A model generated the notes under the pieces. That model was given only the letters and a program-made list of their open reading frames with translations, had not been told where the DNA came from and ran no database searches. DNA of 64,000 nt from a virus (Duplodnaviria > Caudoviricetes). The stretch is from the IMG/VR virus record IMGVR_UViG_3300035180_001680; one strand, 5' to 3'. The position numbers and the translations under genes were made by a program. This document shows positions 7,405 to 63,931 of this stretch, piece after piece (within the stretch, counting starts at the first letter, position 1; the number at the start of each line of letters is the position of its first letter).

Positions 7405-7544
7405 AATCACAACTTATGTTAATACTATTGTCTTTGATAGGGATGATAGTAGTATTCCTTGCCTTTGCTGGTTGTAATCCTTTTGCATGTATGCTTATCG
7501 TTGGATCATTACCATATTTCAGTTACATGAGTACGTTATTATGA
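7401..7544 (+). CDS. 47-aa membrane microprotein
   Basis: MKSQLMLILLSLIGMIVVFLAFAGCNPFACMLIVGSLPYFSYMSTLL; ATGA overlaps with both neighbours. Confidence 0.7.
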   Translation: MKSQLMLILLSLIGMIVVFLAFAGCNPFACMLIVGSLPYFSYMSTLL

Positions 7545-8872
7545 TCACCCCAGCAAGTTCTGAATACATTAAAGATCAACGTAAACAATATTTTTTATAT
7601 ACAATTTCTGATAGAGCCATTCCTCATTTGTCTGATGGATTAAAAGCTAGTCAAAGACGGGGATTGTGGATAGGAAGAAATGGGGACAAGATGAAAACAT
7701 CGTCTCTTGCTGGTGCCACTATGCCTCTCCATCCACACTCGGAAATATCTGACGTGTTGAGTAATATGGCTGGGGTTTGGAGTAACAATATCCCATTGCT
7801 TACTGGGTATGGAGCTTTTGGAACCATGTTAGCTCCTGGAAGCTATGGTGCACCTCGGTATACAAGTGTTAAAGTATCGGAGTTTACAAAAGATGTTGTG
7901 TTTAGGGACATTGAAATAATTCCTATGCAACCCAATTACGATGACACTCTGGAAGAACCGTTATACTTTCTTCCTCTGGTTCCTATTGTTTTACTTAATC
8001 CTTCTTTTGGTATGACTGGAGGGTTTAAGTGTAATATCCTTCCTTTTGATTTAAAAGATATAATAAATGCTCAACTTTCTCATTTAAATAAAAAGACAGT
8101 TAATGAAGTTTTACCATTTTTTAAACCGATTGAATGCCGAGCTGTATCAAAAGTTGACGATGTTAAAACAAAAAACTCTCGCTATGTGTTTGAGGGTGAA
8201 TTTAAACAACTAAATTCATCAGAAATCCAAATAACTAAACTTCCATATGGTGTTGTTCATAAAAAATATGTAGAACATTTGGATAGTTTGGAAGAAGATT
8301 TCAAGATTGTTGGATATGATGATTTATCAAAAGACAAGATAGACATTATTGTAAAATTTGCACGCGGTTTTGTAAATAAAACAAGCAATGAAGATATGAT
8401 TAAACTGTTGCAGTTATACAATGCTGAAACAGAAATCATGAATGTAGTTTATTTTGATGGTGAAACAGTTTTAAATACTACCTTTGTTGATGTTATACAA
8501 AAGTTCACAGACTGGAGATTAGCATTTTACACCAAACGGTATCAACGTTTGGTAGATTTACTTGATATTGAAATTCAAAAATTTAGAGATGTGATCACAG
8601 CGATTGAAAAAAACGTTAATGGTGTTGCTACAAAAACAAAATCAAAAAGTGAACTGGAAGAATATCTTGAATATATTGGAATAGTTTATCTTGACTATAT
8701 ATCGTCACTTCCGGTATATCGTTTTACTGAAGATGAGAAACATAAAGTAGAACAAAAGTTACAAAGTGCTTTAGATCAAAGGGAAGAATATGTTAATTTG
8801 TTGACTTTCCCTGAAAAAAGAGTGAATGTTTACATAAACGAACTTAAAGAGGTATTAAAAAAATATGGATAA
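7541..8872 (+). CDS. type II topoisomerase medium subunit (gp52/GyrA-like)
   Basis: RAIPHLSDGLKASQRR, catalytic GAPRYT and EEPLYFLP; start at ATG 7541. Confidence 0.95.
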   Translation: MITPASSEYIKDQRKQYFLYTISDRAIPHLSDGLKASQRRGLWIGRNGDKMKTSSLAGATMPLHPHSEISDVLSNMAGVWSNNIPLLTGYGAFGTMLAPGSYGAPRYTSVKVSEFTKDVVFRDIEIIPMQPNYDDTLEEPLYFLPLVPIVLLNPSFGMTGGFKCNILPFDLKDIINAQLSHLNKKTVNEVLPFFKPIECRAVSKVDDVKTKNSRYVFEGEFKQLNSSEIQITKLPYGVVHKKYVEHLDSLEEDFKIVGYDDLSKDKIDIIVKFARGFVNKTSNEDMIKLLQLYNAETEIMNVVYFDGETVLNTTFVDVIQKFTDWRLAFYTKRYQRLVDLLDIEIQKFRDVITAIEKNVNGVATKTKSKSELEEYLEYIGIVYLDYISSLPVYRFTEDEKHKVEQKLQSALDQREEYVNLLTFPEKRVNVYINELKEVLKKYG

Positions 8873-9069
8873 GTCAATACAAGAAATGATTAATTTGTTC
8901 CGTGAAAATATTCCTAAATATCATAGCGGAAGAACTTGTTAATGTCCAACCCATGCCAAATAATATTGATTTTAAAGCGTTAGCTGAACATCCACTATGG
9001 GTATCATATTGTATTCGACACCGAATTGGTGTCACAAATGAGGCAAACGGAGAAACAAACGATGAATAA
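8865..9069 (+). pseudogene. frameshifted mini-gene with a major-capsid (Gol peptide)-like motif
   Basis: Removing one A of AAA 8916-8918 gives a single 67-aa ORF MDKSIQEMINLFRENIPNIIAEELVNVQPMPNNIDF...NDE that overlaps both flanking genes. Confidence 0.6.
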
Positions 9070-9454
9070 ATTTTTAATGATAGGACTAATCTCTGTGATA
9101 ACGGGATGTTCTGTAGTTGGTGCCAAGTATGATGCTAATGAATATTCTACATTCACTCGCATCGCAGCAGAAGCAATGGAGGCAAAACAAGTTTGTGGTA
9201 ATCAGGAGCAAGTTAGATATTACGCTTCACGACTTCGAGACGATTCTGCATTCGCTGTAATATATACAAAATATGAACCGTATAACGAAGAAACATTTCA
9301 AATGGCCACAGAAATCAAAAAAATGGTAGATGAACTTAATGTGTCCGTGGATAAGGGGAATATGCCCCAAACATTTTGTTCAATTAAACTTGATATCATT
9401 CAACAATCTGCAGAAACGGCGATGAGGTCTTCTACATCTAAAAGGAACCAATAA
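9062..9454 (+). CDS. predicted lipoprotein
   Basis: Signal MNKFLMIGLISVITG-C with a lipobox; GGAG upstream. Confidence 0.7.
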   Translation: MNKFLMIGLISVITGCSVVGAKYDANEYSTFTRIAAEAMEAKQVCGNQEQVRYYASRLRDDSAFAVIYTKYEPYNEETFQMATEIKKMVDELNVSVDKGNMPQTFCSIKLDIIQQSAETAMRSSTSKRNQ

Positions 9455-9456
9455 AC

Positions 9457-9690
9457 ATGAATATCAGCGACATACTTTCTTCAACAGACCAAACGGCTGT
9501 ATTTTTGGGTCAACAAGCCCAAAGAGCCAAAACAGCTCTCGATTCGGGTGCAATTACTCAAGCGGAGTATGATGAGTTAGTTGGTGATTTAACAGACTTA
9601 GAATGGATAGATTCATTAGCCAGAACTGTTGAAGAGAAGGCAAGGCTTTATCAAGTTGTTCAATTTTTAATCGGATTTTTGAAAAAATGA
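9457..9690 (+). CDS. hypothetical helical protein
   Basis: Tightly packed after the lipoprotein gene. Confidence 0.65.
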   Translation: MNISDILSSTDQTAVFLGQQAQRAKTALDSGAITQAEYDELVGDLTDLEWIDSLARTVEEKARLYQVVQFLIGFLKK

Positions 9691-10016
9691 CCGGACGAAT
9701 ACTTACTTGTGTATATTGTGGACACGAATATCCTCAAGACACTCCGGCATTTGGGAGTGATATATTAACTGAACACATCAAAGTATGTGAACAACACCCA
9801 CTCCGAAAAGCCGAACAACAAATCTCTGTGTTACGTTCTGCATTAGTTGGTTTACTGGGGGTTGATGGGAAAAATGATTTGATTCAAATGAAAACACACA
9901 TTCAGAACTTTCCTGACACTGAACCCAACAAAGCCGTTAGTCTTAATGCAATAAACGCATTATTGGACACCACAAATAAAAATCAAAGGACGAAAAATGA
10001 AAACATACAGCGATGA
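9687..10016 (+). CDS. Zn-finger-containing hypothetical protein
   Basis: CVYC...EHIKVCEQHP followed by a coiled segment. Confidence 0.65.
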   Translation: MTGRILTCVYCGHEYPQDTPAFGSDILTEHIKVCEQHPLRKAEQQISVLRSALVGLLGVDGKNDLIQMKTHIQNFPDTEPNKAVSLNAINALLDTTNKNQRTKNENIQR

Positions 10017-60225: not shown

Positions 60226-60768
60226 TCATTTCGAAAGTCCTTTAATAAATTCGTTGTATGGTTTAGCCCGTTCTGTATCTTTTGCAATAGCAGGTTCTGC
60301 TTCAGGCCATCTTCCCTTGATGATATAACGAGCATACCAATAAGCCCACCGTGGATCTTTTGTAATAACATGTTCTGCTTTAGGAAATCTTCCTTTGATG
60401 ACATCACGAGCATACCAATAAGCCCAACGTGGATCTTTTGCAATAGCAGGTTCTCCTTCAGGCCATCTTCCTTCAATGACATCACGAGCATACAAAAAAG
60501 CCCATTCTGGATCTTTTGCAATAGCAGGTTCTCCTTCAGGCCACTTTCCCTTGATGACATCACGATCATAACTATAAGCCCACTGTGGATCTGTTGCAAC
60601 AACAGATTCTGCTTCTTTTTTCTGTTGTGCGTTTAATTTTCCACTTTTTAGTGCCTCATATGCCATCTGTGGAGTAGCCATGTGCTTTTTATCAAACCCA
60701 TGCAATTTTTCTGGGTTTGAATGATATTTGTATAAATCCATTGCTTCAAACAAGTCGCGTAATTTCAT
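60226..60768 (-). CDS. 26-aa repeat protein, copy A (4 repeats)
   Basis: 62-aa N-module + 4x26 + 14-aa cap = 180 aa. Confidence 0.9.
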   Translation of the reverse strand: MKLRDLFEAMDLYKYHSNPEKLHGFDKKHMATPQMAYEALKSGKLNAQQKKEAESVVATDPQWAYSYDRDVIKGKWPEGEPAIAKDPEWAFLYARDVIEGRWPEGEPAIAKDPRWAYWYARDVIKGRFPKAEHVITKDPRWAYWYARYIIKGRWPEAEPAIAKDTERAKPYNEFIKGLSK

Positions 60769-61385
60769 TTCGAAAGTCCTTTGATGAATTCGTTGTAATT
60801 TTTAGCCCACTTTGGATCTTTTGCAATAGCAGGTTCTCCTTCAGGCCATCTTTCTTTGATGACATCACGAGCATACCCATAAGCCCACTTTGGATCTTTT
60901 GCAATGACAGATTCTGCTTCAGGCCATCTTCCTTTGATGACATCACGAGCATACCCATAAGCCAACTCTGGATCTTTTGCAATAGCAGGTTCTCCTTTAG
61001 GAAACCTTCCTTTGATGACCTCACGAGCATACCAATAAGCCAAACGTGGATCTTTTGCAACAGTAGGTTCTGCTTCAGGAAATCTTTCCTTGATGACATC
61101 ACGAGCATAAATATAAGCCAAACGTGGATCTTTTGCAATGACAGATTCTCCTTTAGGCCATCTTCCCTTGATGACATCATGAGCATACTCATAAGCCCAC
61201 TTTGTGTCTGTTGCAACAACAGATTCTGCTTCTTTCTTTTGTTGTGCATTCAGTTTTCCACTCTCCAGTGCCTCATATGCCATCTCAGGCGTAGCCATGT
61301 GCTTTTTATCAAACCCATGCAATTTTTCTGGGTTTGAATGATATTTGTATAAATCCATTGCTTCGAGTAAGTCACGTAGTTTCAT
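60765..61385 (-). CDS. 26-aa repeat protein, copy B (5 repeats)
   Basis: 62 + 5x26 + 14 = 206 aa; ATGA overlap. Confidence 0.9.
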   Translation of the reverse strand: MKLRDLLEAMDLYKYHSNPEKLHGFDKKHMATPEMAYEALESGKLNAQQKKEAESVVATDTKWAYEYAHDVIKGRWPKGESVIAKDPRLAYIYARDVIKERFPEAEPTVAKDPRLAYWYAREVIKGRFPKGEPAIAKDPELAYGYARDVIKGRWPEAESVIAKDPKWAYGYARDVIKERWPEGEPAIAKDPKWAKNYNEFIKGLSK

Positions 61386-62080
61386 TTCGAAAGTCCTTTG
61401 ATGTCTTGTTTATACCGTTTAGCATATGTTGGATCTTTTGCAATAGCAGGTTCTTATTCAGGCCATCTTCCTTTGATGACAGAACGAGCATAATTATAAG
61501 TCCAACGTGGGTCTTTTGCAATAGCAGGTTCTGCTTCAGGCCATCTTCCTTTGACGGCATCACGAGCATACAAAAAAGCCCATTCTGGATCTTTTGCAAT
61601 AGCAGGTTCTCCTTTAGGAAATCTTTCTTTGATAACATTACTAGCATACCAATAAGCCCACCGTGGATCTTTTGCAATAGCAGGTTCTCCTTCAAACCAT
61701 CTTCCTTTGATGACATCACGAGCATACAAAAAAGCCCATTCTGGGTCTTTTGCAATAGCAGGTTCTGCTTCAGACCATCTTCCTTTGATGACATCACGAG
61801 CATACAAAAAAGCCCATTCTGGGTCTTTTGCAATAGCAGGTTCTGCTTCAGACCATCTTCCTTTGATGACATTACGAGCATAACTATAAGCCCACTGTGG
61901 ATCTGTTGCAACAACAGACTCTGCTTCTTTTTTCTGTTGTGTGTTTAATTTTCCACCTTTTAATGCAAAAAAAGCCATCTCAGGAGTAGCCATGTGTTTT
62001 TTATCAAACCCATGCAATTTTTCTGGATTCGAGTGATATTTGTATAAATCCATTGCTTCAAACAAGTCGCGTAATTTCAT
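61382..62080 (-). pseudogene. 26-aa repeat protein, copy C (6 repeats) with in-frame TAA
   Basis: TAA at 61454-61456 replaces the G/A codon of WPE(G/A)EP. The frame continues 23 codons to KGLSK-TGA, which overlaps the ATG of copy B. Confidence 0.85.
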
Positions 62081-62775
62081 TTCGAAAGTCCTTTGATGTC
62101 TTGTTTATACCGTTTAGCATATGTCGGATCTTTTGCAATAACAGGTTCTGCTTCAGGAAATCTTCCTTTGATGACATTACGAGCATAATACGAAGCCCAC
62201 TGTGGATCTTTTGCAATAACAGATTCTGCTTCAGGAAATCTTCCTTTGATGACATTACGAGCATACCAATAAGCATACTGTGGATCTTTTGCAATAGCAG
62301 GTTCTCCTTCAGGCCATCTTCCTTTGATGGCACCACGAGCATACTCATAAGCCCATTCTGGATGTTTTGCAATAGCAGGTTCTCCTTCAGGCCATCTTCC
62401 TTTAATGACATCATGAGTATACCAATAAGCATACTCTGGATGTTTTGCAATAGCAGGTTCTCCTTCAGGCCATCTTCCTTTAGTGACATCATGAGTATAC
62501 CAATAAGCATACTTTGGATCTTTTGCAATAGCAGGTTCTCCTTCAGGCCATCTTCCTTTGATGGCATCACGAGCGTACTCATAAGCCCACCGTGGATCTG
62601 TTGCAACAACAGACTCTGCTTCTTTTTTCTGTTGTGCGTTTAATTTTCCACCTTTTAATGATTCAAAAGCCATCTCAGGCGTAGCCATGTGCTTTTTATC
62701 ATATCCATGCAATTTCTCTGGATTTGAGTGGTATTTGTATAAGTCCATTGCTTCGAATAAGTCACGTAATTTCAT
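62077..62775 (-). CDS. 26-aa repeat protein, copy D (6 repeats)
   Basis: 62 + 6x26 + 14 = 232 aa. Confidence 0.9.
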   Translation of the reverse strand: MKLRDLFEAMDLYKYHSNPEKLHGYDKKHMATPEMAFESLKGGKLNAQQKKEAESVVATDPRWAYEYARDAIKGRWPEGEPAIAKDPKYAYWYTHDVTKGRWPEGEPAIAKHPEYAYWYTHDVIKGRWPEGEPAIAKHPEWAYEYARGAIKGRWPEGEPAIAKDPQYAYWYARNVIKGRFPEAESVIAKDPQWASYYARNVIKGRFPEAEPVIAKDPTYAKRYKQDIKGLSK

Positions 62776-63314
62776 TTTGAAAGTCCTTTAATAAATTCGT
62801 TGTATGGTTTAGCCCACTCTGGATGTTTTGCAATAACAGGTTCTGCTTCAGGAAATCTTTCTTTGATGACATCACGAGCATACCCATAAGCCCACTCTGG
62901 ATCTTTTGCAATAACAGATTCTGCTTCAGGAAATCTTCCTTTGATGACATTACGAGCATACTCATAAGCCCAATCTGCTTTTTTTGCAATAGCAGGTTCT
63001 CCTTCAGGCCATCTTCCTTTGATGACATAACGAGCATACAAACAAGCCCAACGTGTATCTTTTGCAATGACAGATTCTCCTTTAGGAAATCTTTCTTTGA
63101 TGACATTACGAGCATACAAACAAGCCCATCTTGGATCTGTTGCAACAACAGACTCTGCTTCTTTTTTCTGTTGTGCGTTTAATTTTTCACCTTTTAATGC
63201 TTCAAAAGCCATCTCAGGCGTAGCCATGTGCTTTTTATCATATCCATGTAACTTCTCTGGATTTGAATGATATTTATATAAATCCATTGCTTCGAACAGA
63301 TCACGTAATTTCAT
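62772..63314 (-). CDS. 26-aa repeat protein, copy E (4 repeats)
   Basis: 180 aa, same architecture. Confidence 0.9.
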   Translation of the reverse strand: MKLRDLFEAMDLYKYHSNPEKLHGYDKKHMATPEMAFEALKGEKLNAQQKKEAESVVATDPRWACLYARNVIKERFPKGESVIAKDTRWACLYARYVIKGRWPEGEPAIAKKADWAYEYARNVIKGRFPEAESVIAKDPEWAYGYARDVIKERFPEAEPVIAKHPEWAKPYNEFIKGLSK

Positions 63315-63931
63315 TTCGAAAGTCCTTTAACAAATTCTTTGTATTTTTTAGCCCATTCTGGATCTTTTGCAATAACAGGTTCTGCTTCAGGAAATCTTCT
63401 TTTAATGACATCACGAGCATACCCATAAGCCCACTGTGGATCTTTTGCAATAGCAGGTTCTCCTTTAGGAAATCTTCTTTCGATGACTTGTTGAGCATAC
63501 ACATAAGCCCAATCTGCTTTTTTTGCAATAGCAGGTTCTCCTTTAGGAAATCTTTCCTTGATGACATTACGAGCATACAAACAAGCCCACTTTGGATCTT
63601 TTGCAATAGCAGGTTCTCCTTCAGGCCATCTTCCTTTAGTGACATCATGAGTATACCAATAAGCATACTCTGGATCTTTTGCAATAGCAGGTTCTGCTTC
63701 AGGAAATCTTCCTTTGATGATATCATCAGCATAATTATAAGCCCAACGTGGATCTTTTGCAATAACAGACTCTGCTTCTTTTTTCTGTTGTGCGTTTAAT
63801 TTTCCACTCTTTAGTGCTTCAAAAGCCATCTCAGGAGTAGCCATGTGTTTTTTATCATATCCATGTAACTTCTCTGGATTTGAGTGGTATTTGTATAAAT
63901 CCATTGCTTCGAATAAGTCACGTAATTTCAT
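63311..63931 (-). CDS. 26-aa repeat protein, copy F (5 repeats)
   Basis: 206 aa, same architecture. Confidence 0.9.
   Translation of the reverse strand: MKLRDLFEAMDLYKYHSNPEKLHGYDKKHMATPEMAFEALKSGKLNAQQKKEAESVIAKDPRWAYNYADDIIKGRFPEAEPAIAKDPEYAYWYTHDVTKGRWPEGEPAIAKDPKWACLYARNVIKERFPKGEPAIAKKADWAYVYAQQVIERRFPKGEPAIAKDPQWAYGYARDVIKRRFPEAEPVIAKDPEWAKKYKEFVKGLSK

Follow-up and report, generated by a model that had tools for sequence, protein, structure and literature searches.

The stretch of DNA analyzed here comprises 64,000 nucleotides (nt) of a virus assigned to the Caudoviricetes (IMG/VR record IMGVR_UViG_3300035180_001680) and is referred to, at its full length, as the window. At positions 8865-9069 it carries a pseudogene copy of a mini-gene, which is inactivated by an inserted A at codon 18. 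Probably, this is the broken form of a small early gene whose native product comprises 67 amino acids (aa); the product would belong to a family of small proteins that carry the Gol segment of the T4 capsid protein gp23, and the intact protein would act as a mimic of this segment. Judged from the profile and sequence comparisons described below, a widespread and conserved family of mini-proteins (50-110 aa) with a capsid segment exists in phages with T4-type (Gp23) capsids, and its homology to capsid proteins is specific. The family is described in no paper that we found, and databases list its members as 'hypothetical' or under unsupported names.

An earlier prediction made from the letters of the window (the original prediction) had stated that deletion of one A joins two short frames into a 67-aa open reading frame (ORF) overlapping both neighboring genes. 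This proved correct to the base: when CCTA is read as one step, the 67-aa protein P0002 is obtained, which contains EMINLFRENIPNIIAEELVNVQPM. The mini-gene has the following features:

8865..8942, + strand: mini-gene ORF as present in the window, 25 aa (MDKSIQEMINLFRENIPKYHSGRTC), consisting of the native codons 1-17, 8 out-of-frame codons and the stop codon TAA at 8940-8942.
8886..8955, + strand: putative capsid (Gol-like) module, residues 8-30, MINLFRENIPNIIAEELVNVQPM, interrupted by the extra A; assigned by profile and pairwise comparisons.
8916..8918, + strand: AAA run with one extra A, causing the frameshift at codon 18; located by DNA alignment A1, with AA in sibling strains.
8917..9069, + strand: native codons 18-67 and stop codon, now in the +1 frame and ending with TAA at 9067-9069; from ORF reading and family alignment A7.
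8989..9024, + strand: family-specific tail motif HPLWVSYCIRHR of subtype i, conserved in alignment A7.
8998..9000, + strand: TGG (W45), which is TGA in L007, L008, L009 and run X4; from the strain alignment and the run contigs.

The sequence of T4 gp23 and its gap-free alignment to the mini-protein had been given in the original prediction; both were correct when checked against NC_000866. Residues 94-117 of gp23 (VMGMVRRAIPNLIAFDICGVQPM) align without gaps with residues 8-30 of the mini-protein, with 10 of 23 positions being identical; by sequence, this part of the mini-protein corresponds to the Gol peptide (gp23 residues ~93-121). The alignment reached a score of 54 as compared to 27.2 +/- 4.1 for shuffled sequences, and in none of 2000 shuffles was 54 reached. 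A score of 55 was obtained with the capsid protein of G004, a relative with a complete sequence of 366 kb. When the 44-aa protein P0003, encoded by another allele of the mini-gene, was compared in six frames with the whole genomes of T4 and G004, only the capsid Gol segment was matched (E = 0.022 and 0.023). Furthermore, a hidden Markov model (HMM) of the capsid protein was run against the 2,287 six-frame ORFs of the contig, and the mini-gene was the top match after the Gp23-family ORF of the contig itself. Comparison by hhalign of two mini-gene lineages with an alignment of capsid N-termini gave a probability of 93% (E = 3e-7). The shuffling, six-frame and hhalign results, together with the Pfam, PDB and family HMM results given below, bear out the proposal that the N-terminus of the mini-gene corresponds specifically to the gp23 Gol segment, of which it is a copy.

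The joined 67-aa protein gave a sole Pfam match, namely Gp23 (PF07068) at profile positions 7-31 of 376, with an E-value of 0.011 and a score of 15.6 bits, which is below the cut-off; the two separate halves gave no match to Pfam Gp23. Assignment as a Gp23-type capsid protein needs a whole-protein score above the Pfam gathering cut-off of 24.4 bits and a match that spans the HK97-fold body. On this evidence, the relationship of the mini-protein to capsid proteins is confined to one segment, and the mini-protein does not belong to the capsid proteins itself. About 5 kb upstream of the start of the window, at ~83.4-84.4 kb of G000:C1 (L001 1468-2538, - strand of the locus), a Gp23-family ORF of 356 aa is located. 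It contains a degenerate Gol motif (KQVLDKMALKELVGVQPIQDP), lies among non-structural genes and shows ~25-30% identity to known capsid proteins; it could be the true capsid protein of the phage or a paralogue. Contig L259, which harbors another member of the mini-protein family, carries a 385-aa Gp23-family gene between dUTPase and exonuclease genes.

The family was collected by an exhaustive profile search of 1.84e9 proteins (E <= 1e-3), which yielded 35 representative small proteins of 53-139 aa. A second search in a set of 5.8e9 proteins yielded 68 proteins, encoded on contigs of up to 244 kb. The consensus of the family is IRK..P..IAEE.VSVQPM.NIDF.ALA.HPLW.SYC.RH and includes the tail of the window protein, PLWVSYCIRH. 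Residues R13, P17, A21, V27, Q28 and P29 are near-invariant in the alignment, and these are the positions invariant in capsid proteins. The window has the N-terminal module (I/L)RK..P..IAEE.V.VQPM in the form of FRENIPNIIAEELVNVQPM with all six near-invariant residues present, and the subtype-i tail NID(F/L/W)..(L/I)A..PLW.S(Y/F)..RH in the form of NIDFKALAEHPLWVSYCIRH in the +1 frame. An uninterrupted ORF of 50-110 aa is lacking, as the frameshift at codon 18 leaves an ORF of 25 aa. At least two tail types occur in the family, subtype i to which the window belongs and a larger type ending with KS.EEL.AEGY.PVS.LGLMW(I/V)KK. The tail (H/S)PLW.S(Y/F)(C/V).RH is conserved in P0005-8, P0010, P0011, P0014-18, P0025, P0031 and P0034, and W45 is retained in 14 of 18 subtype-i members according to our own count in alignment A7.

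The capsid homology of the family was found with several profile libraries. Pfam Gp23 (PF07068) was matched by 29 of the 35 representatives, with a best E-value of 2e-9. A subtype profile compared with the whole PDB gave residues 95-118 of T4 gp23 as the sole matches. When 26,920 six-frame ORFs were searched with the family HMM, the matches were confined to family members and to the Gol segment of ~80 capsid proteins. Of the 35 members, 24 matched the end of phrog_12830 (128 positions, 'major head protein'), where the Gol segment lies; positions 93-128 of phrog_12830 correspond to T4 gp23 residues 94-126. In contrast to the mini-protein, phrog_12830 is a family of N-terminal capsid fragments. 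Ten of the 35 members matched phrog_21284 (62 positions, 'hydrolase'), with a best E-value of 3.4e-7, and some members from cultured phages are probably already clustered there, as far as the profile matches tell; its 'hydrolase' label, however, found no support in our analysis. The possibility that phrog_21284 is a capsid family was rejected, since it did not match the capsid proteins of T4 or G004. The label 'hydrolase' and the label 'DNA-directed RNA polymerase subunit F' given by the Joint Genome Institute (JGI) to P0066, P0068, P0069, P0074 and P0078 look spurious.

Members of the family are closer to each other than to the capsid motif of their own phage, which points to an old, separately evolving family rather than to repeated recent copying. 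For P0003 alone, and for P0005 supplied with the family alignment, AlphaFold predicted helices only, with a predicted local distance difference test (pLDDT) score of 70-77. P0022 (139 aa) contains two copies of the capsid motif, LLPLIRNVLPNIIAHDICGVQPMTG and LIPYDTVGVQPMPGPISEIMTMRYSYG, the second of which runs further into capsid-like sequence. When the window locus was searched as DNA and as protein against 50,697 phage records, nothing useful was obtained; a word-indexed protein search with the single sequence returned only the 44-aa allele and nothing in its 'longer' mode, and the ESM Atlas gave no usable match to P0003. None of 80 distant gp52 loci and 61 lipoprotein loci had an adjoining mini-gene.

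Every genomic context examined was a string of early or nucleotide-metabolism genes and never a head module. Family members are located after gp52, gene 56, NrdH-like, exonuclease, CTP-transferase-like and ligase-region genes, and in about half of the examined contexts their start overlaps the upstream stop codon. The window conforms to this arrangement: the mini-gene lies in a co-directional early/nucleotide-metabolism string of a phage with a Gp23-family gene on the same contig. Its placement with early genes, as originally proposed, is supported by the primase, topoisomerase II subunit and phosphoesterase genes upstream and by a ribonucleotide reductase (RNR) gene nearby. Two members were found in cultured phages, both of which have Gp23-type capsid genes. 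In Agrobacterium phage Atu_ph04, the member (52 bits; L257 2237-2683; MKFDTELISKIRKSSPSVIAEEIVSVQPV...GLLWIKD) follows an NrdH-like gene, as an ORF that carries no annotation. In Acinetobacter phage Acj61, it is Acj61p048 (L256 2510-2857), an ORF overlapping the end of gene 56. The annotated start of Acj61p048 falls past the capsid motif; an upstream ATG overlapping the end of gene 56 would include it.

For the extra A, the original prediction had considered an inactivating mutation, a programmed +1 shift and an assembly error, and had proposed an inspection of positions 8916-8918. The comparison of runs at these positions was made on assembled contigs. The window, the IMG/VR contig L003 and the Logan contigs of runs X1-X3, which belong to three studies, all carry the extra A, with a depth of 216 in run X2; run X1 may be the source of the window DNA and would then not be independent. 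The extra A is absent from L007, L008, L009 and run X4, which have one base fewer at 8916. No other coding-region indel was seen when the strains were compared over ~3.4 kb. The -A allele is carried on a different haplotype, which is ~1.5% divergent and shows 11 other differences in 900 bases; hence, the +A and -A forms represent separate strains.

Since the extra A was recovered in three runs, in one of them at a depth of 216, an assembly error is unlikely. Single-base indels in A runs are a common type of error and the data were contigs, but the A run is only three long, the same extra A recurs in the window, in L003 and in the contigs of three runs (with the reservation made for X1), and the -A allele sits on a separate haplotype. 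We therefore give very little credence to the view that the phage really has an intact mini-gene and that the frameshift arose during sequencing or assembly. Equally far-fetched appears a programmed +1 ribosomal frameshift at CCU AAA U, by which the +A allele would still yield the 67-aa protein. The +A allele is abundant and stable across three runs, and both frames are open over the site. However, known +1 sites combine a slippery P-site codon with a rare or stop codon in the A-site, AAA is a common codon, and CCU AAA U lacks the features known from such sites. With three A, the run is also too short for transcriptional slippage. Furthermore, a Shine-Dalgarno-like stimulator was not found upstream of the site, and the shift occurs in no relative, being absent from the sibling strains and the sister lineage as well as from the other family members (35 + 68), which are plain ORFs. 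Among the three options, the inactivating mutation is the one upheld here.

Further lesions were observed within the phage clade to which the window belongs. In the -A strains, TGA replaces TGG at codon 45, leading to the 44-aa protein P0003. The sister lineage L005, with a gp52 that is 66% identical, has kept the ATGGATAA start, but TAA replaces the Q of VQPM at codon 29; the region of this lesion is identical in four aligned contigs of the L005 lineage from four samples. In total, three TAA codons interrupt the reading frame in this lineage, and its tail motif is lost. A third lineage, L004, lacks the mini-gene, its gp52 and lipoprotein genes being separated by only 25 nt. Because the three lineages are about equidistant, this absence reflects either a loss or a mini-gene that was never present. 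No intact mini-gene was found in the clade of the window, where three different lesions and one absence occur, and scans of viral contigs for more alleles returned only contigs already known. The mini-gene was apparently lost several times independently in this clade, a pattern compatible with relaxed selection as well as with selection acting on a gene that is costly. The original prediction had called for intact orthologues; more than 100 intact small ORFs of the family exist elsewhere, and none was found in the clade of the window itself. In strain L007, a further natural truncation was observed in the same gene string, where CAA is changed to TAA at codon 100 of orf109 (window 9687-10016), shortening the product from 109 to 99 aa.

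The remnants still bear the marks of a coding sequence. Identity between the window and L005 by codon position was 0.56 / 0.72 / 0.37 for the mini-gene and 0.58 / 0.70 / 0.44 for the lipoprotein gene. This matching pattern, at saturated synonymous divergence, indicates that the mini-gene evolved as a coding sequence for most of its history. Among the window-type strains, codons 1-44 show no non-synonymous changes as compared to five to seven in neighboring small genes. A native product of 44-48 aa with an intact TGA allele was considered because the window and L005 have no similarity past codon 44; this reading was dropped, as the PLW.SYC.RH tail is conserved in the family. Since this tail is conserved and TGA is a normal stop codon in the window phage, the TGA allele is also a lesion. 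Reassignment of a stop codon (TGA as W or TAA as Q) was rejected, TGA ending 24 of 72 long ORFs and TAA ending gp52. From the family alignment, we take the 67-aa reading to be the native form of the gene.

The Gol segment is the most conserved part of gp23, and a 29-residue Gol peptide binds domains II-III of EF-Tu and licenses Lit to cut EF-Tu (PMC3014915). Lit and CapRel recognize capsid proteins by short motifs, and EF-Tu is also present in the Avs7-capsid protein complex (bioRxiv 10.64898/2026.01.04.697583). In the family members, the N-terminal 25-30 residues represent a free-standing Gol segment (T4 gp23 ~93-121), joined to a family-specific tail, here NIDF.ALA.HPLW.SYC.RH. In the mechanism that we propose, the intact mini-protein would be made ahead of the capsid protein and would occupy whatever partner recognizes the capsid segment. 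This partner might be EF-Tu, to which the T4 segment is known to bind, or a host sensor recognizing the motif in the way of Lit. If so, the recurrent natural knock-outs would mean that the mini-gene is dispensable or costly in the present hosts. It is a rather more speculative and, in our opinion, unlikely extension that EF-Tu or a Lit/CapRel-like sensor is pre-loaded by the early mimic, so that capsid-sensing abortive infection would be blunted or prematurely tripped; in that case, the three knock-outs and the one absence would record an ongoing arms race, with the mimic turning into a liability in those hosts whose sensor it activates.

The closest known system is the Gol/Lit/EF-Tu exclusion system of prophage e14, in which Lit cleaves EF-Tu at Gly59-Ile60 and which involves the same stretch (mini-protein residues 8-30 and gp23 residues 94-117). 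In the T4 system the 29-residue peptide is active alone (PMC3014915), and the mini-protein likewise is a free-standing segment. The two differ in that the mini-gene is a separate gene in an early-type region whereas gp23 is a late capsid gene, in that the mini-proteins add the conserved tail, and in that S, N or D precedes VQPM in the mini-proteins whereas G is invariant at this position in capsid proteins; moreover, the window copy is broken. The proposed logic also resembles that of phage inhibitors such as DSAD1, which acts against the defence sensor DSR2, where a phage protein takes the site at which a structural protein acts as trigger (PMC11087589). The mini-protein differs from DSAD1 in that its resemblance is a literal copied motif. 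To our knowledge, DSAD1 is not a sequence copy of its trigger.

Several points weigh against the mimic. We infer both the mimicry and the binding of EF-Tu or a sensor from sequence, and the decoy role and the activation or inhibition of Lit raised in the original prediction are likewise hypothetical. The members have diverged from the capsid protein of their own phage, including the residue in front of VQPM (S, N or D and not G), and the motif may serve a family-specific role unlike the binding by the capsid segment. As the clade contains no intact copy, the mini-gene may do nothing here; the runs were seen as contigs, and a minor intact allele is possible. Protein databases under-count broken copies, which makes the share of intact copies elsewhere uncertain. 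Finally, the contacts of the corresponding capsid region in the T4 prohead make a role in assembly possible by analogy.

According to this last view, the family would act in head assembly, with a free N-arm binding scaffold, portal or capsid subunits and thereby affecting timing or poisoning the heads of a competitor. The N-terminal region of T4 gp23 up to ~L105 is disordered in the prohead and is thought to contact the scaffolding core, and Met98 contacts the portal whisker (PMC9546572); in addition, the motif residues kept in the family are those invariant in capsid proteins. Nevertheless, we consider a function in assembly somewhat unlikely, as the examined members all occur in early or nucleotide-metabolism strings and none in a head module, and as members are not nearest to the capsid motif of their own phage. 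The decay seen in the clade, with three separate lesions, one absence and a sister lineage that has accumulated three in-frame TAA codons and lost the tail, could also be expected of evolutionary debris, that is, a functionless fragment of a capsid gene undergoing neutral decay. This appears improbable in the light of more than 100 intact small ORFs that combine the capsid module with a non-capsid tail and in which the key residues are near-invariant at 30-55% identity. Both the coding-like conservation by codon position over saturated synonymous divergence and the lack of non-synonymous changes in codons 1-44 of the window-type strains also argue against debris.

Few triggers of bacterial immunity are as common as capsid proteins, which Lit and CapRel recognize by way of short motifs. 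A described capsid-motif mimic or decoy was not found in the papers searched. If the mimicry proposed here is true, a conserved, early and free-standing copy of such a motif would represent a type of phage counter-measure, or of trigger, that is new, and it would offer direct access to the long-standing question of why EF-Tu is bound by the Gol segment. The window copy is a mere pseudogene, and its value is that it leads to the family. Two cultured carriers, Atu_ph04 and Acj61, make this family open to ordinary genetics, and the near-identical strains with different natural knock-outs are ready-made comparisons.

The window is part of an IMG/VR virus record of 84.9 kb with an estimated completeness of 25%, which implies a large phage. 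Close to the mini-gene lie genes for a primase, the topoisomerase II large subunit, a phosphoesterase and a gp52-like medium subunit, followed by small co-directional ORFs; the RNR gene near this string is on the opposite strand. The features adjoining the mini-gene are:

7487..8872, + strand: topoisomerase II medium subunit (gp52-like), the upstream gene; from the ORF, a PF00521 match on identical products and homologues.
8846..8852, + strand: AAAGAGG, a possible Shine-Dalgarno sequence 12 nt 5' of the mini-gene ATG; read from the sequence.
9062..9454, + strand: lipoprotein gene, downstream, beginning with MNKFLMIGLISVITGC; from the ORF, its own GGAG 7 nt 5' of the ATG and 61 homologous loci.

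The ATG of the mini-gene (8865-8867) overlaps the TAA stop codon of the gp52-like gene (8870-8872) within ATGGATAA. More likely, the start of the mini-gene depends on coupling to the termination of gp52 rather than on AAAGAGG; in the sister lineage L005, GAGG is missing and the ATGGATAA overlap is retained. A scan for promoters and terminators between gp52 and the mini-gene found none, and Rfam together with the promoter/terminator scan revealed nothing notable near the mini-gene. At the other end, the stop codon TAA (9067-9069) overlaps the start of the lipoprotein gene (ATG at 9062). The lipoprotein has the lipobox ITGC, and its homologues in 61 IMG/VR contigs all show a signal peptide and a C-terminal AETAM..KR.Q; a comparison with PHROGs gave no match. 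Further downstream, the - strand of the window carries six head-to-tail ORFs of 180-232 aa at 60226-63931 with overlapping starts and stops (60226-60768, 60765-61385, 61454-62080, 62077-62775, 62772-63314 and 63311-63931). Long mirror ORFs are present on the + strand, and the arrangement resembles an array of tandem paralogues.

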